From contig DATMPZ010000048.1 of NCBI GenBank assembly GCA_035567335.1, positions 7,020 through 71,019 on the forward strand: DNA of 64,000 bases, in the 5' to 3' direction. Both the position numbers and the translations under genes were made by a program. Below are positions 16,356 through 44,900 of the stretch, one piece after another. The DNA comes from Solirubrobacteraceae bacterium. GTDB lineage: Bacteria > Actinomycetota > Thermoleophilia > Solirubrobacterales > Solirubrobacteraceae. Positions within the stretch are counted from its first letter, which is position 1. Every line of letters begins with the position of its first letter. The notes under the pieces were generated by a model. It searched no databases. It was given only the letters and a program-made list of their open reading frames with translations, and was not told the DNA's origin.

Positions 16356-17209
16356 ACGGGGGCTCCGTGGCCGGTTACGGGGGTGAGGGCGTCAGGGGCG
16401 GTCGGGCTTTGACCGATCAAAGATCGGCCAGCATCCGCGCAGGCGGTTCCCGCTCGGCGCGGGTTGGCGCTGGCCGATCGGAGATCCCGTCGATCTCCGA
16501 TCGGTATCCGGCCCCGCATCAGCTCGGATCGCGAGACAGCCCGCGGGCGCCGGTGACAGGCGTCGGCGAAGTGGTCCGCCATGCGTGTCCGAAAGCCGTC
16601 CGGATCGATCGTGCGTCCGGAAGGAAGCTCGCGGGCGATCGAGGTCATCGTCACGTCCGGGAGACCGCAGGCGATCACCCACGAGAACGGCGCGAGATCG
16701 ACGTCGACGTTGACGGCGAATCCATGGGTGGCGATGCCGCGCGAGACGTGCACGCCGATCGAGGCGATCTTGCGGTCCTCCACCCACACGCCGGTATAGT
16801 CGGGTCCCTCTTCGCAACGCGAACGCGCCTTTACGCCGTAGCCGGCCAGCGCGGCAATGATCGCGGCTTCCATCGTGCGCAGATGCGCGCCGATGTCATC
16901 GACGCGCATGATCGGATAGCCGACCAGCTGGCCGGGACCGTGGTAGGTGACGCGCCCGCCGCGGTCTGTCTCGACGACCTCGATGCCACGCGCGCGGTAG
17001 AGGTCCTCGCCGAGCGTCAGCTCCCCCGGCGCCGAGCGCCGTCCGCGCGTGTAGACGGGCGGATGTTCGAGCAGCAGCAGCGTGTCTGGCAGCTCCCCGG
17101 TCAGCCGGAGTTCGCGGATGTGCAGTTGCAGGGCGAGCGCGTCGCGGTAGGAGGCCGTGCCCAGGTGGTGCACCCATAGCTCCGGTGAGGACGGTTTGGC
17201 TTCGATCAT
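16352..17209 (-). CDS. lipB: Lipoyl(octanoyl) transferase with a repeat-derived C-terminal extension
   Basis: LLLLEHPPVYTRG, DRGGRVTYHGPGQLVGYP, KIASIG, HGFAVN; start set at ATG 17209. Confidence 0.93.
   Translation of the reverse strand: MIEAKPSSPELWVHHLGTASYRDALALQLHIRELRLTGELPDTLLLLEHPPVYTRGRRSAPGELTLGEDLYRARGIEVVETDRGGRVTYHGPGQLVGYPIMRVDDIGAHLRTMEAAIIAALAGYGVKARSRCEEGPDYTGVWVEDRKIASIGVHVSRGIATHGFAVNVDVDLAPFSWVIACGLPDVTMTSIARELPSGRTIDPDGFRTRMADHFADACHRRPRAVSRSELMRGRIPIGDRRDLRSASANPRRAGTACADAGRSLIGQSPTAPDALTPVTGHGAPV
16411..16504. repeat. Composite of two inverted copies of the GATC palindromic element inside the lipB 3' end
   Basis: Full copy with a perfect 13-bp IR CCGATCGGAGATC/GATCTCCGATCGG at 16474-16504; shortened inverted copy at 16411-16432. 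Confidence 0.8.
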
Positions 17210-17286
17210 CGGCTGCAGTCTCAGGTTAGCGTCGGCCGAAGCGCTCGAAGACCTGGTGCGTTTTCGTCGTCCCATCATACGTTCGA

Positions 17287-17365
17287 TACACTATGACCTG
17301 CCAAGATGAGCGCTATTGAGTTGCTCATTCCGGGGTCCGGTTCGCCGGGCCCCGTCTTTGTTAAA
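17287..17365 (+). ncRNA. Putative antisense RNA, unit A (type I antitoxin-like)
   Basis: -10 TACACT 17287-17292; body GCCAAGATGAGCGCTATTGAGTTGCTCATT; hairpin CGGGGTCCGG-TTCG-CCGGGCCCCG 17331-17354 followed by TCTTTGTT. Confidence 0.55.
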
Positions 17366-17417
17366 CGTGCGTTCCGGCGGGCATCGGGCCCGACTCCCGC
17401 CGGAGCTGGGTTTGGCG

Positions 17418-17462
17418 CTACGTCTGGTTGCGGATGACCGCGACCAAAGCGCAATCGTCGCG
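17418..17462 (-). pseudogene. 3' remnant of a toxin-like peptide gene (unit A)
   Basis: Encodes ..VAVIRNQT-stop, paralogous to ..VAVIRSLR-stop of unit B; 5' part missing and 1-nt shift. Confidence 0.55.
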
Positions 17463-17570
17463 TTTGCGTCCCGTCATGCGTCCGGTACACTGGACGAGCC
17501 AAGATGAACTCAATGGAGTCGTTTATTCCATTGCCTCGGGGTCCGGCATGCCGGACCCCGGCTTCGTTTA
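17463..17570 (+). ncRNA. Putative antisense RNA, unit B (type I antitoxin-like), with its promoter
   Basis: TTTGCG-N17-TACACT (17463-17491); 17498-17531 complementary to codons 1-10 of the peptide mRNA; perfect palindrome CGGGGTCCGGCATGCCGGACCCCG 17537-17560 then GCTTCGTTT. Confidence 0.6.
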
Positions 17571-17621
17571 AAGGGCGCCCCGGCGGGCCCGAGGCCGACT
17601 CCCGCCGGAGCTTGGGTGGCG

Positions 17622-17690
17622 CTATCTCAGGCTGCGGATGACCGCGACCATGAGCGTAATCGCCAGAATGAACTCAACGGAGTAGTCCAT
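17622..17690 (-). CDS. 22-aa hydrophobic peptide, putative type I toxin (MDYSVEFILAITLMVAVIRSLR)
   Basis: Near-perfect SD AAAGGAGGTGA with GGAGG 7 nt before the ATG; single TM helix with basic C-end; paralogous remnant next door; 14-bp IR flanking the ORF. Confidence 0.7.
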   Translation of the reverse strand: MDYSVEFILAITLMVAVIRSLR

Positions 17691-17797
17691 CCCATCACCT
17701 CCTTTCCTGGGCCGGTCGGCCTCGGGCCGGCATGATCGGGCGGTGGGTGATAACCCGCCGACGAACCTACAGATCGCTTCGGGGATTCCTCCGAGGC

Positions 17798-19174
17798 TTA
17801 CAGCGTTAGCGAGGCGGGCTGTTCGAGCAGCTCGCGGATGCGCGCCAGGAAGCGCGCGGCGTCGGCGCCGTAGAGGATGCGGTGGTCGCAGGCCAGTGTG
17901 ACCGTCATCGTCTGACGCGCGGCGATCTCACCGTCCTCGCGCACGACGGGGCGGGGGCCGACAGAGCCAACCGCCAGGATCGCCGCCTGTGGCGGATTGA
18001 CGATCGCGGTGAACGCGCTGACGCCGAACATGCCGAGGTTGGAGACCGTGAACGTGCCGCCGCCGAGCTCGGGTGGCGTGATCGAGTGCTCGCGCACGCG
18101 CGAGGCCAGGGCGCGCGTCTCGCGGGCGATCTCGCCGAGCGACTTGGCGTCGGCGTCGAACACGGTCGGCACGATCAGCACGCCGCCGCTCGAGGGTCCG
18201 TCGGCCTCCACCGCGACGGCGATGCCGACGTTGACGCGCCCGTGCAACTGCAGACGCCCGTCGCGATAGCTGGAGTTCGCGCGCGGGTGCTCGCGCAGGG
18301 CCAGCGCGCAGGCCTTGACGACCATGTCGTTGTAGGTGGGTGCGTCCGCTTGGCCGAGGCGCTTGAGCTCGGAGCGCAGCGCGACGCACTCCTCCATGTC
18401 GATGTCGGCCTGGAGTGAGAAGTGGGGGATCGTGGCCTTCGACTCGGCCATGCGCCGGGCGATCGTCTGCTGGGTGCGCGAGAGCTCGATCTCGGTCGTC
18501 TCGCCGCGGGCCGTTGTCACACCCGCGAGCGCCGCTCCGGGCGACGAGCCGGCGGCCGCACCGGTGGTGGCCGTGTCTGCTACGCCGGATGGCCCGTCTG
18601 CGGCGTCGGCGGTCGTGCGGGGTGTCTCGGTGTGGACCGTCGAGGCGACCGCCTGGACGTCGGCCTTGACGATGCGCCCGCCCGGGCCCGTGCCGGTGAG
18701 CGCGTGCAGATCCACGTCGTTCTCCCGCGCGATGCGCCGCGCCAGCGGCGACGCCTTGACGCGCTTCTGGTTTGCCGTGGGGCTCGTCTCCGCCACCGGG
18801 CCCGGGATGGCCTCGCGGACGGCCTCGGCAGGTGTGGAGGGAGTAGCCGCACCAGACTGGCCGGCTGCAGCGACGGCGCCCTCGTTCGCATCCCCGCCGC
18901 CGGAGGTCACGTGCGCGTCCTGACCGCCCACGCCGGTCCCGTCGCCCGAGCCCACCTGCGCGATCACCGCGCCGACCGGCAGCGTGTCGCCCTCGGCGGC
19001 GACGATCTGAAGGACGCCGTCGAGGTCTGACTCGTAGGTCATGGTCGCCTTGTCGGTCTCGATCTCGACGATCTCCTGCCCGCGCCGCACCGGCTCGCCG
19101 TCGGCGGCGAGCCAGCGCAGGATCGTGCCCTCCTCCATCGTGTCGGACAGGCGCGGCATGACGATCTCGGCCAT
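17798..19174 (-). CDS. pdhC: Dihydrolipoamide acetyltransferase (E2)
   Basis: MAEIVMPRLSDTMEEG, lipoyl ETDKA, PSBD ASPLARRIA..GTGPGGRI, DHRILYG. Confidence 0.95.
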   Translation of the reverse strand: MAEIVMPRLSDTMEEGTILRWLAADGEPVRRGQEIVEIETDKATMTYESDLDGVLQIVAAEGDTLPVGAVIAQVGSGDGTGVGGQDAHVTSGGGDANEGAVAAAGQSGAATPSTPAEAVREAIPGPVAETSPTANQKRVKASPLARRIARENDVDLHALTGTGPGGRIVKADVQAVASTVHTETPRTTADAADGPSGVADTATTGAAAGSSPGAALAGVTTARGETTEIELSRTQQTIARRMAESKATIPHFSLQADIDMEECVALRSELKRLGQADAPTYNDMVVKACALALREHPRANSSYRDGRLQLHGRVNVGIAVAVEADGPSSGGVLIVPTVFDADAKSLGEIARETRALASRVREHSITPPELGGGTFTVSNLGMFGVSAFTAIVNPPQAAILAVGSVGPRPVVREDGEIAARQTMTVTLACDHRILYGADAARFLARIRELLEQPASLTL

Positions 19175-19233
19175 CAGCGCGTCTCTCCCGGAGTGAGACA
19201 CGCGCCCACGTAAAGGCCTGTGCGTCCGGCCAT
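19174..19233 (-). CDS. 19-aa bridging mini-ORF between pdhB and pdhC
   Basis: MAGRTGLYVGACLTPGETR; TGATG overlaps at both ends; CTGATGGCCG present at both junctions. Confidence 0.35.
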   Translation of the reverse strand: MAGRTGLYVGACLTPGETR

Positions 19234-20258
19234 CAGAGCCCCTCCTGCGCGGCGACGGGCGTGTCGGAGCCCTCGCCCCGCCCGAGTGTGGCCAGCGCGG
19301 CGGCCACCACCTGAGGCTCATGTGGAAATGCGATTTCCTCCAGCGGCTTGGAGTAGGGCATCGGCACGTCCGCGCCCGACACGCGTGCGACCGGGGCGTC
19401 GAGGTCATCGAAGGCGTGCTCGGCGATCAGCGCGGCGAGGTTCGCGCCGACGCCTCCGTGCGGCCAGCCCTCCTCGACGACGACGCAGCGGTTGGTGGTG
19501 TGCACGGAGGCGAGGATCGTGTCCAGGTCCAGCGGGCGCAGCGTACGCGGGTCGATCACCTCCGCCTGCACCCCGTGCTCGTCGGCGAGCGTGGTGGCCG
19601 CCCGTTCGGCGGTGAGCGCCATCCGCGAGACGCCGACGATCGTCACGTCCGAGCCCTCGCGGCAGACGCGCGCGCGGCCGAACTCGACGAGCGCGTCCTC
19701 GTCGTCTGCCACCTCTCCGCGGACGCCGTACAGCGACTCGTGCTCGATGAAGATGACCGGGTTCTCGTCGCGGATCGCCGTCTTCAACATGCCCTTGGCG
19801 TCGGCGGGCGTGGCGGGCACGGCGACGAGCAGGCCGGGGACGTGCAGGAACATCGCCTCCAGGCAGTGCGAGTGGGTCGGCCCGAGCTGGTGGCCGGCGC
19901 CCTGGGGCATGCGGATGACCAGCGGCACCGATACCTGGCCGCCGAACATGTAGCGGATGTGCGCGGCGTGGTTGACGATCTGGTCGAACGCGAGCAGCGA
20001 GAAGTTGATCGTCATCAGCTCGACCACGGGGCGCAGGCCGGTCATCGCCGCGCCGACGCCGATGCCGACGATCGTGTTCTCCGAGATCGGCGTGTCGCGC
20101 ACGCGCCGCTCCCCGAACTGCTCGAGCAGACCCTCGGTGACTTTGAACGCGCCCCCGAACACGCCGATGTCCTCGCCGAGCAGCACCACGCGCTCGTCGC
20201 GGCGCAGCTCCTCGCGCAGCGCCGCGTTCAGGGCTTCGCGATAGCGCAGCTCGCTCAC
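19233..20258 (-). CDS. pdhB: Pyruvate dehydrogenase E1 beta subunit
   Basis: LRYREALN, GEDIG, DTPISE, GPTHSH, IDPRTLRPLD; GTG start at 20258. Confidence 0.95.
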   Translation of the reverse strand: MSELRYREALNAALREELRRDERVVLLGEDIGVFGGAFKVTEGLLEQFGERRVRDTPISENTIVGIGVGAAMTGLRPVVELMTINFSLLAFDQIVNHAAHIRYMFGGQVSVPLVIRMPQGAGHQLGPTHSHCLEAMFLHVPGLLVAVPATPADAKGMLKTAIRDENPVIFIEHESLYGVRGEVADDEDALVEFGRARVCREGSDVTIVGVSRMALTAERAATTLADEHGVQAEVIDPRTLRPLDLDTILASVHTTNRCVVVEEGWPHGGVGANLAALIAEHAFDDLDAPVARVSGADVPMPYSKPLEEIAFPHEPQVVAAALATLGRGEGSDTPVAAQEGL

Positions 20259-41987: not shown

Positions 41988-44900
41988 TCCGCCGGTCGCA
42001 ATCTGGCGGCCGCCCGCGTTGTGCCGTTGTGCACGGCGAGAAGCGCGGTCTGCCTCGGCTCCTCGCCGTCTTGCCGGCGGTCGCCGCGGCAACGTTCGTC
42101 GTCGTCTCGTTCGCCGGCGCGGCGACCGGCCCGCCCAAGTTTGAAGTGCTAAGCAACAGTGTCCACGCGTTTTCGACCCGCGCGATCGTGCGCACAGAAC
42201 TAATCGAACCTCCACCGAAAACCAGTTACCGCGCGGAATATTCGACCAGCGAAACCGGCCCTTGGACGTTTGTCAACGGCGGTGGCACGGAAGGAGGAGT
42301 CGCTCATCTCCTCTTCTACCTCGGAACCGAATGGGAATACCCCTTAATAAAAACTAATGGCACCTGCGATACTTGTGTGCTTCGACATCTCGCCCCTAGC
42401 ACCCAGTATTATGCAAGGTTCTCGGTGAGAGACGAAGCGGGCGAATCGAGCGAGATCGTGCCGTTCAAGACGACGCCGATCGCCAAGCCGGAACTCCGCA
42501 CTGAATTCGGCAGCACATTCCGGGGTACAGGTGAATTCACCACCAACGCGGCGGGATTCACGGCGCGGATCGAGACGAATGGCGCCGAAGCGACATACGC
42601 ATTCGCCTATTCCACCTCGCAGTCGGGCCCGTGGACGCCGTGTGGCGCGGGCGGGGCGATAACGGTGGCCGAAGACTTCGCGGAACCTACCGGCGCGTGC
42701 ACGGGCCTGAAACCCGAAACGAGCTATTTTGCTCGGGTCGCGGCGTCGAACGAAAAGGGCGCGGTCGAAGAACTGAAGGCGTTCGAAACGCCGTCGGTCA
42801 AGGCCACGGTCAACCCCCTCCAGAGCAGTGACGTTTATAACGTCACGGCGGTCTCCGTCCGCCCGCGCGGGGCGGTCTCCCCTCATGGTTCGAAGACGAG
42901 TTGGCGGTTTGAATCGGCGCCGTCGGCTTCGGGCCCGTGGTCGCCGATCCCGGGCGCGTCGGGCACGATCTCCCGGGCCCGCGCCGAAGAACTCGGCGTT
43001 AGTCACAGCGAACCAATCGACGCCGCCCTCACGGGTCTGAGGCCTTCGACCACATACTACATGCGGCTGTTCGCGGAAAACGACGCGGGTGAAGCTCTGT
43101 GCAGCCAGGGTGGCTCGCCGATTTCCGAAGGGAAGTGCGTGACGTCGTTCGAAACCTCTGGTCCCCCGTCTGCGGCGACGTTTGCGACGCACGGGGTCCA
43201 TGGTGAAGCCGCGCGCGTGATGGGAGCGGTGGATCCGCGGAGCACGCCGACGTCGGCTGAGCAGCAGGTCAGGATCGAAGGCGCCCCGACGGGCGGAACG
43301 TTCACGCTCTCCTATGAAGGGCGGACGACCCCGCCGATCCCGATCAACGCCCCTGGCGAAGCTGGCCCGGAAGGGCAAGAAACGGTCAGCGGTGCGCTTG
43401 AGAAGCTTCCTGGCGGTGCGCCTGGGCTCGTGTTCGTCGATGGTCCTCCGGGCGGCCCGTACGATGTGATGTTCGCCGGTGGTGGGGCGCAGCCGCTGCT
43501 GCAAGGGGATGGTTCGGGTTTGACGCCGTCGGGTTCGGTGAACGTGACGACGATCCAGGCGGGTGGCGAAGCGTACGACGCGCACTACCACTTCGAATAT
43601 GAACCGGTGGAACCTGGCGTCGAACCGTTCTCGCGTGCGCTCTCGACGCCGTCGAACGATGGGGGCTCGGGCGCGCAACCGCAGATCCGCGGCGTCGACC
43701 TCCCGGGTGTGTCGCCTGGCGCGAGCTATCGTTACCGTCTGGCGGCGTCGAGCACGGCTCCGGGTAATCCGGTTGTGCATGGCCAGGAACAGACGCTCAC
43801 GGCACCGGTGCCCTCGACTGCCTCGAGTGAACCGTGTCCGAATGAAGCCCTTCGGACCGGGCCGTCGGCGAATCTCCCGGACTGCCGCGCCTACGAGCAG
43901 GTGACCCCGGTGGAAAAGGGCGACGCGCAGGAACCGTTCAACTACGGTGTCAGCTTGGAAGCGGAAGCGCCGGTCGGGGTGGACGGGGAACATGTGCTCG
44001 TGAACTCCCCGGCCGCGTGGGGCGCTGGGCCGCACGCCGGCCACGGCCCGTACCTGTTCTCGCGCACCGCCGGCGGCTGGCAGATGACCGCCGCGGCGCC
44101 GGAGCCAGAGTTCGGGGTCAACAGGCTCGAACCGCGGGGGCTCACGCCCGATCTCACCTCGATGCTGTTGAAGTCGTTCGCGGAAACGGTGCCCGGGGAA
44201 CGCGGCGAACAGGTCGAATACCGCTTCGGCCCTACCGGCGGCCCGTACACGACGGTCGCTACGGTCCCGGCGAAGCAGGCCGGGCTTGGGTTCGTGTCTG
44301 CGACCCCGGACTACTCGAAGGTGATCCTCGCCGTCGAAGACCGCAACCTCGTCGAACCGCACTCCACGACCAAATCGGGGGAGGACCTCTACGAATACTC
44401 CGGCGGAGAACTGCGTCAGGTCAACGTGGGTGTCGGCACGTGCGGCGCGACCAGCAAGGGCGTCTCCCCCGACGGGTCCCGTGTGAGCTTCGAAGCGGTC
44501 CCCGGCGGCAACTGCAGCGCGCCGCGCCACCTCTACGTGCGGGTCGACGGCACCGAAACTCAGGACCTCGGCGTCGCCTCGGCGACCGACACGGTCCGCG
44601 GCTCAAACGAAGCCGGCACCGAGCGGCTGCTCGAACGCACCACCGGCGAAGAACACGAGCTCCTGCTCGAAGAACCCGAAACCGGGCACACCACGCACCT
44701 GCTCACCCTCCACGGCCAATTCGAACTCGCCCCATCGCGGAACCTCGGCGCGTTCTATCTGACCACGGGGCAGGCGCTCACCACGGAAGCGCCGGAAGGG
44801 TCCGTCGCTCCCGAATCGCCGACACCAAACGGCAGCCCGTCGGTATCCGTCTACCGTTACGACATCCCCCTCCGGAGCTTGCGGTTCCTGTTCGTCGCGA

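Follow-up and report, generated by a model that had tools for sequence, protein, structure and literature searches.

A candidate type I toxin-antitoxin module between the E2 and lipB genes of soil Solirubrobacterales

A 64,000-nucleotide stretch from the genome of a Solirubrobacteraceae bacterium (contig C48, positions 7020 to 71019, of a 2.76-Mb metagenome-assembled genome [MAG] that is 93% complete; hereafter, the window) carries a compact element that is probably a chromosomal type I toxin-antitoxin (TA) module of a previously undescribed family, built in part like par and in part like hok. The element is hosted by the minus-strand gene row pdhA-pdhB-E2-lipB-lipA, where it lies between the stop codon of E2 (17798-17800) and the likely start of lipB (an ATG at 17209). 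One complete and one degenerate module occupy positions 17260 to 17800. The complete module combines a minus-strand open reading frame (ORF) of 22 codons with a predicted convergent gene for a small RNA (sRNA), the 5' part of which is complementary to the Shine-Dalgarno (SD) sequence and the first codons of the ORF. An earlier note, made from this sequence by itself, had listed hallmarks of type I systems at the locus, and these now have comparative support in the form of coding selection, conserved sRNA signals, and covariation.

Type I TA families are known almost solely from Proteobacteria and Firmicutes, and this narrow range is itself a puzzle (PMC5367252). T1TAdb holds 24 families, and its text is without mention of Actinobacteria (PMC8594479). 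Likewise, no type I system in Solirubrobacterales or Actinomycetota came to light in a full-text literature search. Judged by its sequence, the element would represent a toxin/antitoxin family that is new, as is its phylum for such systems, and that joins known control devices in a novel combination.

We propose that a toxin mRNA of ~185 nt would be transcribed from the minus strand, starting at a TAnnnT promoter just after E2. Its very strong SD would be masked either by a 5'-proximal anti-SD (AUCACC) or by GAUCAUGCC, and its start codon would be held in a hairpin. The loop of a 3' hairpin would pair with the loop of a leader hairpin to give a closed, translationally inert mRNA, which we liken to the fold-back of hok and AapA1. 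The gene for the convergent plus-strand sRNA, of ~70 nt, would lie on the 3' side of the toxin gene, and its transcription would run through a diverged direct repeat of the toxin start region; the 5' 30 to 45 nt of the sRNA could then pair with the SD, the start codon, and codons 1 to 10, blocking ribosome binding, and the sRNA-mRNA duplex would probably draw cleavage. Should the sRNA drop and the mRNA be opened by processing, the 22-amino-acid hydrophobic peptide would be made and would insert into the membrane. The second module would be a relic, its toxin gene cut by the arrival or duplication of the first module, with an orphan sRNA remaining. Within this scheme, we infer the transcription of both RNAs, their relative stability, the processing of the mRNA, and the toxicity and target of the peptide.

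The 22-codon ORF and its predicted convergent antisense RNA

Comparisons were made across 45 non-redundant loci, gathered from MAGs of soil Solirubrobacterales through hits to a covariance model (R1) and a scan for the leader/SD pattern; among them, the element has a nucleotide identity of 75 to 96% and shows covariation, beyond what chance would give. The minus-strand ORF and its SD, AAAGGAGGTGA (the reverse complement of 17695-17705), are present in the window as the earlier note had described them. The ORF has exactly 22 codons in 40 of the 45 loci, and the position of its stop codon is fixed. The peptide is made up of a variable N terminus, a hydrophobic core at residues 5 to 18, an invariant R19, and a polar tail. 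Residues 2 to 6 are highly variable, L9, A10, and V17 are invariant like R19, and replacements in codons 7 to 19 are confined to I, V, L, M, and F or to A and T. Moreover, the second position of codons 7 to 19 is almost invariant (entropies of 0.49, 0.05, and 0.58 for the three codon positions). A hydrophobic helix that is translated should show just such a pattern, which indicates that the ORF is under protein-coding selection.

The earlier note did not recognize the peptide, and neither do the databases. An exact look-up of seven such peptides among ~15 billion predicted proteins returned no record, and hmmscan of five peptides against Pfam-A and NCBIfam at E ≤ 10 assigned no family. The sole hit of these family scans, a sub-threshold match to PEF-CTERM (E = 0.09), was dismissed. 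Type I toxins have been characterized as shorter than 70 amino acids, with a transmembrane (TM) stretch, a polar or charged C terminus, and tandem copies (PMC2887945). The predicted peptide fits this description in its size, candidate TM stretch, C terminus, and the tandem layout of its locus, and paralogs of 24 to 25 amino acids end in DRLTR-like tails.

The antisense RNA is predicted from the repeat structure of the locus. Direct repeat D1 (17498-17537 versus 17662-17701, 78% identical without gaps) duplicates the toxin start, so a plus-strand RNA from 17498-17537 is complementary to the toxin start region. The plus-strand promoter that had been read as pointing at this copy, TTTGCG-N17-TACACT at 17463-17491, is in place, and its -10 box is conserved in relatives: wherever a locus has an sRNA copy, TACACT, TAGCAT, TACAAT, or TATAAT stands 6 to 8 nt ahead of GCCARGATGA. 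The sRNA promoter of some relatives reads TTGACT-N19-TATAAT. By their sequences, the promoters here are of a -10-dominated TAnnnT type. At the other end of the predicted sRNA, the palindrome at 17537-17560, already proposed as its end point, forms a perfect 12+12 repeat with CTTCGTTT behind it, and the site scores as an intrinsic terminator on the plus strand; across loci, the sRNA terminator is a G+C-rich hairpin with a U-rich tail. The -10 box and terminator of the plus-strand element are kept in 39 or more genomes, and the region as a whole holds four terminator-like sites versus 0.8 expected. Both sRNAs of the window fold as two hairpins, with z scores of -4.9 (17498-17571) and -4.2 (the left-hand sRNA of the degenerate module).

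The complementarity to codons 1 to 10 that the earlier note had described extends into the SD, and the 5-nt bulge that had been introduced into the pairing is needless. From the SD to codon 10, the 5' 39 nt of the sRNA are predicted to form a near-continuous duplex with the toxin mRNA, with few mismatches and G-U pairs (-56 kcal/mol). The duplex of this sRNA with its own toxin reaches -56 to -60 kcal/mol, versus a row mean of -40, and CAUCACCUC, the complement of the SD and spacer, is present in many sRNAs. All 41 loci with enough flank to be evaluated have an sRNA copy downstream of the intact toxin (two of them were missed by a regular expression and checked by hand); no intact toxin without an sRNA was seen among them. 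As a predicted antisense RNA gene, the plus-strand element joins a stable fold and cognate-specific complementarity to its conserved -10 box and terminator; the RNA-library contigs that cover it carry no strand information.

Comparison across genomes indicates that each genome maintains the complementarity between its sRNA seed and its toxin start region, which argues for selection on the pairing. Cognate sRNA-toxin duplexes average -54.4 kcal/mol versus -43.3 for non-cognate ones, and of 39 loci, 17 have the cognate target in first place and 26 have it among the top three. When the variable segment is taken alone, the alignment score is 5.2 for cognate and 0.4 for non-cognate combinations; with one representative for each of the 26 distinct N termini, it is 4.8 versus 0.3. 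Cognate similarity thus exceeds non-cognate similarity, which independent drift after one old duplication would not produce.

Predicted folding and SD masking of the toxin mRNA

The earlier note had named a covariance model of the locus as a check. R1, which was built on the predicted mRNA span 17572-17757, scores 157 to 213 bits over that span in 44 loci. At the upstream end, a TAnnnT hexamer has a fixed place in all 45 non-redundant loci, and paralogous loci of a second family (family 2) have the same GAGTAGCTT motif at the promoter. In the window, the minimum free energy structure of the whole mRNA has 5'-3' pairing that closes the molecule (z = -2.83).

The SD is conserved as GGAAAGGRGGUG in all loci. 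Leader ATCACC (17746-17751, minus strand), proposed earlier as a partner of the SD, can indeed pair with it and covaries with the SD spacer. In 25 loci, spacer GGUGAU occurs with leader AUCACC, AUCGCC, or related variants (U opposite A), and in 18 loci, GGUGGU occurs with GCCACC, ACCGCC, or related variants (C opposite G); the covarying pair, which joins spacer position 5 to leader position 2, is otherwise G-U in two loci and mismatched in one. This count is motif-anchored, as column-wise counts on the covariance model alignment are blurred by alignment offsets. Further combinations are GGUGAC with GUCGCC and GGUGGC with GCCAUC. The second candidate partner, anti-SD 2, pairs with the SD in the RNAalifold consensus (columns 26-33 with 60-68). 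Its CCCGAUCA motif is invariant in a seven-sequence alignment (A1) and nearly invariant in 45 to 50 rows of a wider alignment, a case of conservation without compensatory change.

The perfect 14-bp inverted repeat that had been described around the ORF (I3, 17586-17599 and 17715-17728) is exact and extends to 17 nt at 94% (17583-17599 and 17715-17731). The long-range 5'-3' pairing that it was taken to suggest is backed by compensatory changes across paralogous families, in which complementarity of the two loops is kept with six different sequence pairs (Table 1). Within the 10-bp core, eight pairs are pairable in 45 to 51 of 51 rows and the other two in 38+7 and 36, and four pairs show changes on both sides across the wider 16-pair span that was scanned. 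The 3' hairpin itself has an 11-bp stem (-27.7 kcal/mol) with three compensatory pairs in RNAalifold. As far as can be judged from alignments, then, anti-SD 1, the start-codon hairpin, the terminator, and the 5'-3' pairing all covary.

Table 1. Predicted features of the two modules in window coordinates, with the arms of the 5'-3' pairing in paralogous loci
Feature	Position	Strand	Description
Toxin-like ORF	17690-17622	-	22 amino acids, MDYSVEFILAITLMVAVIRSLR; intact in 40/45 non-redundant loci
Predicted toxin mRNA -10 box	17764-17769	-	TAGGTT, just past the E2 stop codon; start predicted near 17757
Predicted toxin mRNA	17572-17757	-	~185 nt: 5' untranslated region (UTR), 22-codon ORF, 3' hairpin; ends predicted
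Anti-SD 1	17746-17751	-	AUCACC, near the mRNA 5' end; pairs with GGUGAU of SD and spacer
Anti-SD 2	17729-17737	-	GAUCAUGCC, second SD partner; mutually exclusive with anti-SD 1
Leader hairpin	17715-17731	-	Loop CGAGGCCGAC, 5' arm of the long-range 5'-3' pairing
Shine-Dalgarno	17695-17705	-	AAAGGAGGUGA / AAAGGAGGTGA; with flanking GG, a 13-nt match to the 16S 3' end
Start-codon hairpin	17666-17692	-	AUG with codons 6 to 9; RNAalifold columns 71-79 with 89-97, three pairs changed on both sides
3' hairpin, presumed mRNA terminator	17578-17610	-	After the stop codon; loop GUCGGCCUCG (within 17583-17599), 3' arm of the pairing
Predicted sRNA promoter	17463-17491	+	TTTGCG (17463-17468), N17, TACACT (17486-17491)
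Predicted antitoxin sRNA	17498-17571	+	~74 nt; terminator hairpin 17536-17561 and U-rich tail
Toxin remnant	17418-17457	-	C-terminal part only (..ALVAVIRNQT*), without start codon or SD
Left-hand 3' hairpin copy	17373-17404	-	Palindrome I2, repeats D4/D5
Left-hand orphan sRNA gene	17287-17365	+	-10 TACACT 17287-17292, body 17300-17365, terminator 17331-17354
5'-3' arms, family 1			Leader CGAGGCCGAC; 3' GUCGGCCUCG
5'-3' arms, family 2			Leader GGGGCC; 3' GGCCCC
5'-3' arms, G293 first locus			Leader CGGGGUCGAC; 3' GUCGACCCCG
5'-3' arms, G293 second locus			Leader CGGGGCCGAC; 3' GUCGGCCCCG
5'-3' arms, G297			Leader CGGAGCCGA; 3' UCGGCUCCG
5'-3' arms, G000 contig C45			Leader CGGGGCCGU; 3' ACGGUCCCG

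The tandem form and the distribution of the module

Repeat analysis resolves the region into 2.5 copies of a ~200-bp unit. GCCAAGATGA starts at 17300 and at 17498, in each case after a TACACT box and ahead of a plus-strand terminator, while the third copy, GCCAGAATGA at 17662, is the antisense of ORF codons 1 to 10. The C-terminal half of the ORF and the hairpin after it are repeated at 17373-17457. The complete module consists of the sRNA gene at 17463-17571 and the toxin gene at 17572-17769, and the degenerate module of an sRNA gene at 17287-17365 and a toxin remnant at 17418-17457. The earlier description of the locus as tandem therefore holds for the presence of two units and needs qualifying because the right-hand module alone is intact. 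Tandem Repeats Finder called no array in the region because the units are ~80% alike with indels. In a DNA search, the element proved to be single-copy in its own genome, which rules out a miniature inverted-repeat transposable element (MITE) or a repetitive extragenic palindromic (REP)-type repeat.

The left-hand toxin remnant is cut at 17457, where the right-hand module begins. It aligns to the toxin of the nearest relative, G003 (MNEATQLILAIALLVAVIRNQT), and gives a partial R1 match of 76 bits. The left sRNA is 96% identical to the sRNA of G003 and pairs poorly with the surviving toxin mRNA (-27 versus -56 kcal/mol). The left unit as a whole is also 96% identical to G003, above the flanking lipB (88%), and the right unit and E2 are ~81% identical; the toxin and sRNA of the right unit are of the DYSVEF type, shared with locus L093. 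At the junction (17457/17458), mid-toxin sequence meets sequence from just upstream of the -35 box of the second sRNA. It is possible that a segment reaching from the sRNA promoter to mid-toxin was duplicated and that the copies then diverged; it is also possible that the resident toxin gene took up an inserted module of another type. Under either origin, the resident toxin is destroyed and the sRNA at 17300-17365 is left as an orphan.

In a soil DNA run from another study, a single contig spans the whole tandem form with six differences, so the arrangement is not an assembly artifact of the source MAG. A mosaic or chimeric assembly is also an unlikely source of the tandem form, given this independent contig and the gradual change of identity to the nearest relative. 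Compared with the window, the contig has a T inserted after 17447, which gives the CCAATAGCG spelling seen in G003, and has lost one base at 17453; these differences between samples show that the toxin remnant is polymorphic. An uninterrupted, G003-like single-module form is present in a second DNA run and in contigs from one soil RNA library; its joint goes from 17447 to 17688, and a start region of the NEATQL type lies in between. At a depth of 3, the RNA-library contigs extend from the 3' end of E2 via the leader, the ORF, and both hairpins to 17316, a weak hint that the locus is transcribed. A search limited to sequencing runs of the RNA kind found no run holding the sequence, and a search of runs of any kind found one soil metatranscriptome with 4% of the words.

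The placement of the family in Thermoleophilia, which the earlier note had suggested, is borne out by its distribution. All 44 public loci come from soil MAGs labeled Solirubrobacterales or Solirubrobacteraceae, apart from two labeled merely Actinomycetota. Homologs and their synteny are conserved as well: nearly all of the family-1 loci among the 45 lie between E2 and lipB, where same-genus relatives carry one module, and the E2 proteins of the host species are 53 to 83% identical to that of the window (full-length matches, 57 to 76%). Among 151 sampled genomes of the genus, R1 gave 21 strong hits (157 to 213 bits, the window's own included). Outside the genus, it found two loci in G293, which belongs to another genus of the same family, and outside the family, it found one locus with a convergent sRNA copy in G297, from another family of the order. 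In 150 genomes from the rest of the class, R1 found no convincing relative beyond the order. A VIDR-type degenerate DNA pattern applied to 400 genomes of the order was too strict, as it missed known positives and gave one true hit, and is uninformative on prevalence.

Paralogous modules are found elsewhere in these genomes. Weaker R1 hits (30 to 56 bits) mark other loci with 24-amino-acid peptides, such as MSTTVAVLAIALLVAMLVIDRLAR after a murB-like gene. Loci of the family-2 type have the same promoter motif, leader, SD, and 3' hairpin, and each comes with one or two convergent sRNA copies. A paralogous 24-amino-acid module, with the peptide MANTLNVLAIALLLAMLIIDRLAR and the SD GAGAAAGGAGGG, lies among glycosyltransferase-like genes on contig C45 of the window's own genome, G000 (~43780-43960; L115). 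The loop of its 3' hairpin is complementary to the leader, and a diverged start-region copy facing a TATCGT box lies downstream. A regular-expression scan of this genome found the peptide of the window and that of contig C45 and no other.

Several loci fit the population pattern of a TA system. Same-genus genomes G014 and G005 have empty sites, with an E2-lipB gap of 24 to 30 nt. The sRNA stands without a toxin in G032, in G007, and in the window's left unit, and a broken toxin lies beside an intact or decaying sRNA in L080 (frameshift), L054 (32-nt insertion), and L078 (nonsense mutation). In the sequences at hand, decay is one-sided, with toxins lost and sRNAs kept. The sRNA copy beside every evaluable intact toxin (41/41 loci), set against broken toxins that still have one, is indirect support for toxicity of the peptide on overproduction.

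Further observations concern individual loci and the neighboring genes. In the family-2 loci L050 and L054, two tandem convergent sRNA copies with their own terminators stand behind a single toxin gene, so the paralogous family, too, has antitoxins that were duplicated where the toxin was not. The ~32-nt insert in the toxin ORF of L054 (genome G086) is rich in GATCG palindromes (CCGATCGACGATCGATGGGATCGACTGATCGG), and both sRNA copies remain downstream. The first locus of G293 (L102) has, on the mRNA strand and 3' of the toxin hairpin, a 13-nt element, GATCTCTCGGCTC, that is complementary to the toxin start, GAGCCGAGAGATC; this element could act in cis in the 3' UTR, or it could be part of a co-directional RNA instead of a convergent sRNA. 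In empty-site genomes, ACGCTAGGCTGA lies immediately ahead of lipB. The longest ORF of E2 (dihydrolipoamide acyltransferase) covers 17798-19408 and encodes 536 amino acids. Its first ~80 residues resemble a non-coding extension, the lipoyl domain begins at MAEIVMPRLSDTMEEG, and translation probably starts near 19170. The distance from the lipB start codon to the opposite-strand sRNA -10 box is 20 to 90 nt (17209-17300 in the window; relatives include L011 and L013), and in many relatives a plus-strand TAGCAT overlaps a minus-strand TATGCT, so that two -10 boxes are face to face. Transcription of lipB and of the sRNA may therefore interfere, or lipB may need read-through from the toxin promoter.

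Known systems, rival explanations, and significance

The par locus of pAD1 (Fst/RNA II, Enterococcus faecalis) has much of the plan that is predicted for the module. Its toxin mRNA and antitoxin RNA converge, transcription of the antitoxin passes through direct repeats and gives it a 5' end complementary to the toxin initiation region outside any 3' overlap, the toxin is small and hydrophobic, and the SD is masked inside the mRNA. Tested against the par layout, the locus has the convergent direct repeats and the 5' complementarity, and its RNA ends are predicted. A counterpart of the bidirectional par terminator occurs in three loci alone (L032, L059, and L084), where the sRNA lacks its own terminator and runs into the mRNA 3' hairpin, so that one hairpin is shared; most loci have two hairpins and thus separate terminators for the two RNAs. 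The module is further unlike par in that there is no sequence relation, the peptide has 22 rather than the 33 amino acids of Fst and lacks the Fst motif, pairing takes place in one continuous block of 30 to 45 nt instead of two short repeats, a 5'-3' loop-loop pairing is added, and the host is a high-GC actinobacterial chromosome and not a Firmicute plasmid. Consistent with this, five peptides searched at E ≤ 10 had no Pfam-A or NCBIfam match that would place them in the Fst/Ldr family. A summary of the par organization is given in PMC8594479.

Another small membrane peptide toxin belongs to SprA1/SprA1AS of Staphylococcus aureus, in which SprA1AS is encoded 3' of the toxin gene and uses a non-overlapping 5' domain to target the SD and the start codon (PMC8594479). 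The two systems are linked by no sequence or Rfam match, their peptides are unrelated, and an overlap of the RNAs at their 3' ends, as in SprA1, is at most a possibility for the module.

The proposed resemblance to hok/Sok of plasmid R1 and AapA1/IsoA1 of Helicobacter pylori lies in the full-length mRNA, which is made inert by 5'-3' pairing together with SD-sequestering hairpins. The model for hok mRNA has processing at its 3' end; here, mRNA processing is assumed. In both known systems, the antisense RNA arises inside the toxin mRNA region, in cis and with perfect complementarity, whereas here it comes from a neighboring gene and pairs imperfectly; the peptides and RNAs are also unrelated. 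The two alternative anti-SDs recall the successive metastable hairpins of the AapA1 mRNA (PMC6733600). The module does not belong to hok/Sok, as the peptides have no Pfam hit, the ORF list shows no overlapping, mok-like frame, and the sRNA is a separate downstream gene. With hok/Sok, then, the module has the 5'-3' fold-back principle alone in common.

TisB/IstR-1, ZorO/OrzO, DinQ/AgrB, and ShoB/OhsC also have a separate neighboring antitoxin gene with limited, imperfect complementarity and an inert primary transcript, and their toxins are hydrophobic peptides of 26 to 29 amino acids (PMC3919570; PMC8594479). ZorO/OrzO occurs in tandem copies (PMC3919570; PMC8594479). These proteobacterial systems are unlike the module in that their sRNAs are 5' and divergent and target the 5' UTR or standby site, and no sequence relation exists. 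More broadly, an Rfam cmscan of 16900-18100 on both strands at E ≤ 10 gave chance-level hits alone, the best of which, sau-6072 (E = 0.23), was merely a terminator hairpin; no covariance model of the curated antitoxin RNAs (Fst/RNAII, SprA1AS, Sok, IstR, RatA, SR4, Sib, Rdl, and others) matched. With no Pfam, NCBIfam, or Rfam match, the module falls outside the known type I families.

Several points weigh against a toxin-antitoxin function. One fixed chromosomal site is held across deeply diverged species, a pattern for which a host function that was retained would account at least as well as a selfish addiction element. The toxicity of the 22-amino-acid peptide is presumed from sequence, and its hydrophobic core has just ~14 residues. 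The window's sRNA promoter is weak by the sigma-70 consensus (7/12 by hand count), and a strict sigma-70 scan called no promoter in the region. The RNA-library contigs, which may stem from carried-over DNA, are uninformative on strand, ends, and expression level. Because the partner in anti-SD 1 was picked as the best 6-mer, its count is biased toward pairing, though its position is constant. The covariation statistics come from related genomes, so p-values such as that of the permutation test for the 26 distinct N termini, in which none of 20,000 permutations reached the observed sum (p ≤ 5e-5), overstate independence; despite this kinship, the direction and size of the cognate effect are clear.

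The main rival, which we judge unlikely but take seriously, is that the ORF encodes an sRNA-controlled small membrane protein that is not a toxin, for example, a benign regulatory or accessory subunit of a membrane complex whose synthesis is tuned by the sRNA and the mRNA fold. The RNA evidence speaks for tight control and not for toxicity, and the purifying selection on the peptide core, the vertical inheritance at a fixed site across hosts as distant as their E2 identities indicate, and the lack of any mobile-element context noticed in the loci read would all fit such a protein. However, the module is patchily distributed with clean empty sites, its paralogs lie in unrelated gene contexts, toxin ORFs have decayed repeatedly with the sRNA kept while the reverse was never seen, and the N terminus follows RNA pairing rather than a protein interface. 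It is very improbable that the element is instead a cis-regulatory leader for lipB/lipA, with the ORF as leader peptide, the hairpins as attenuator, and the plus-strand element acting in antisense to restrain transcription that reads through from pdh into lipB. The position between E2 and lipB in nearly all family-1 loci would agree with a leader, as would the RNA-library contig that joins the E2 3' end to the leader region. Also, in many loci just ~20 nt separate the start codon of lipB from the sRNA -10 box, so lipB transcripts must cross or start inside the module. Yet same-genus genomes have an E2-lipB gap of 24 to 30 nt with a TAGGCT that resembles a -10 box but without a module, paralogs of the module are found after murB or among glycosyltransferase genes, the peptide forms a conserved hydrophobic helix and lacks any run of regulatory codons, and lipB is still present at sRNA-only loci. 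Finally, the ~200-bp repeat in 2.5 copies and the visibly degenerate left unit might suggest a non-functional tandem duplication remnant or repeat element, with the complementarity as a by-product of duplication. Such an origin is hardly credible for an element that is unique in its genome and conserved with a coding signature in 45 loci, whose repeat copy retains its own promoter and terminator; the excess of cognate over non-cognate similarity is likewise unexpected from independent decay of one old duplication.

With a type I TA module as the preferred interpretation, a wider joint reading can be put forward, which we regard as possible but somewhat doubtful. The locus would be the founding example of an order-wide type I TA superfamily in Actinomycetota that combines a par-like neighboring antisense RNA, a hok/AapA-like 5'-3' fold-back, and two anti-SDs, and the first six toxin codons and the sRNA seed would co-diversify into orthogonal specificity types. 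The window would then record a replacement event, in which an incoming DYSVEF-type module cut the resident NEATQL-type toxin and left behind an orphan antitoxin that no longer pairs with the new toxin, as its poor duplex energy would indicate.

A family backed by covariation in the abundant soil Thermoleophilia would suggest that the phylum gap in type I systems is at least partly detection bias. The module would also bring together four RNA-level controls with compensatory changes in one compact natural system: an antisense seed, two anti-SDs, a start-codon hairpin, and a 5'-3' closure. Moreover, its layout would provide a search recipe for high-GC genomes, namely, a strong SD and an ORF of ~20 to 25 codons, followed downstream by a diverged direct copy of the start region that has an opposing -10 box and a terminator.

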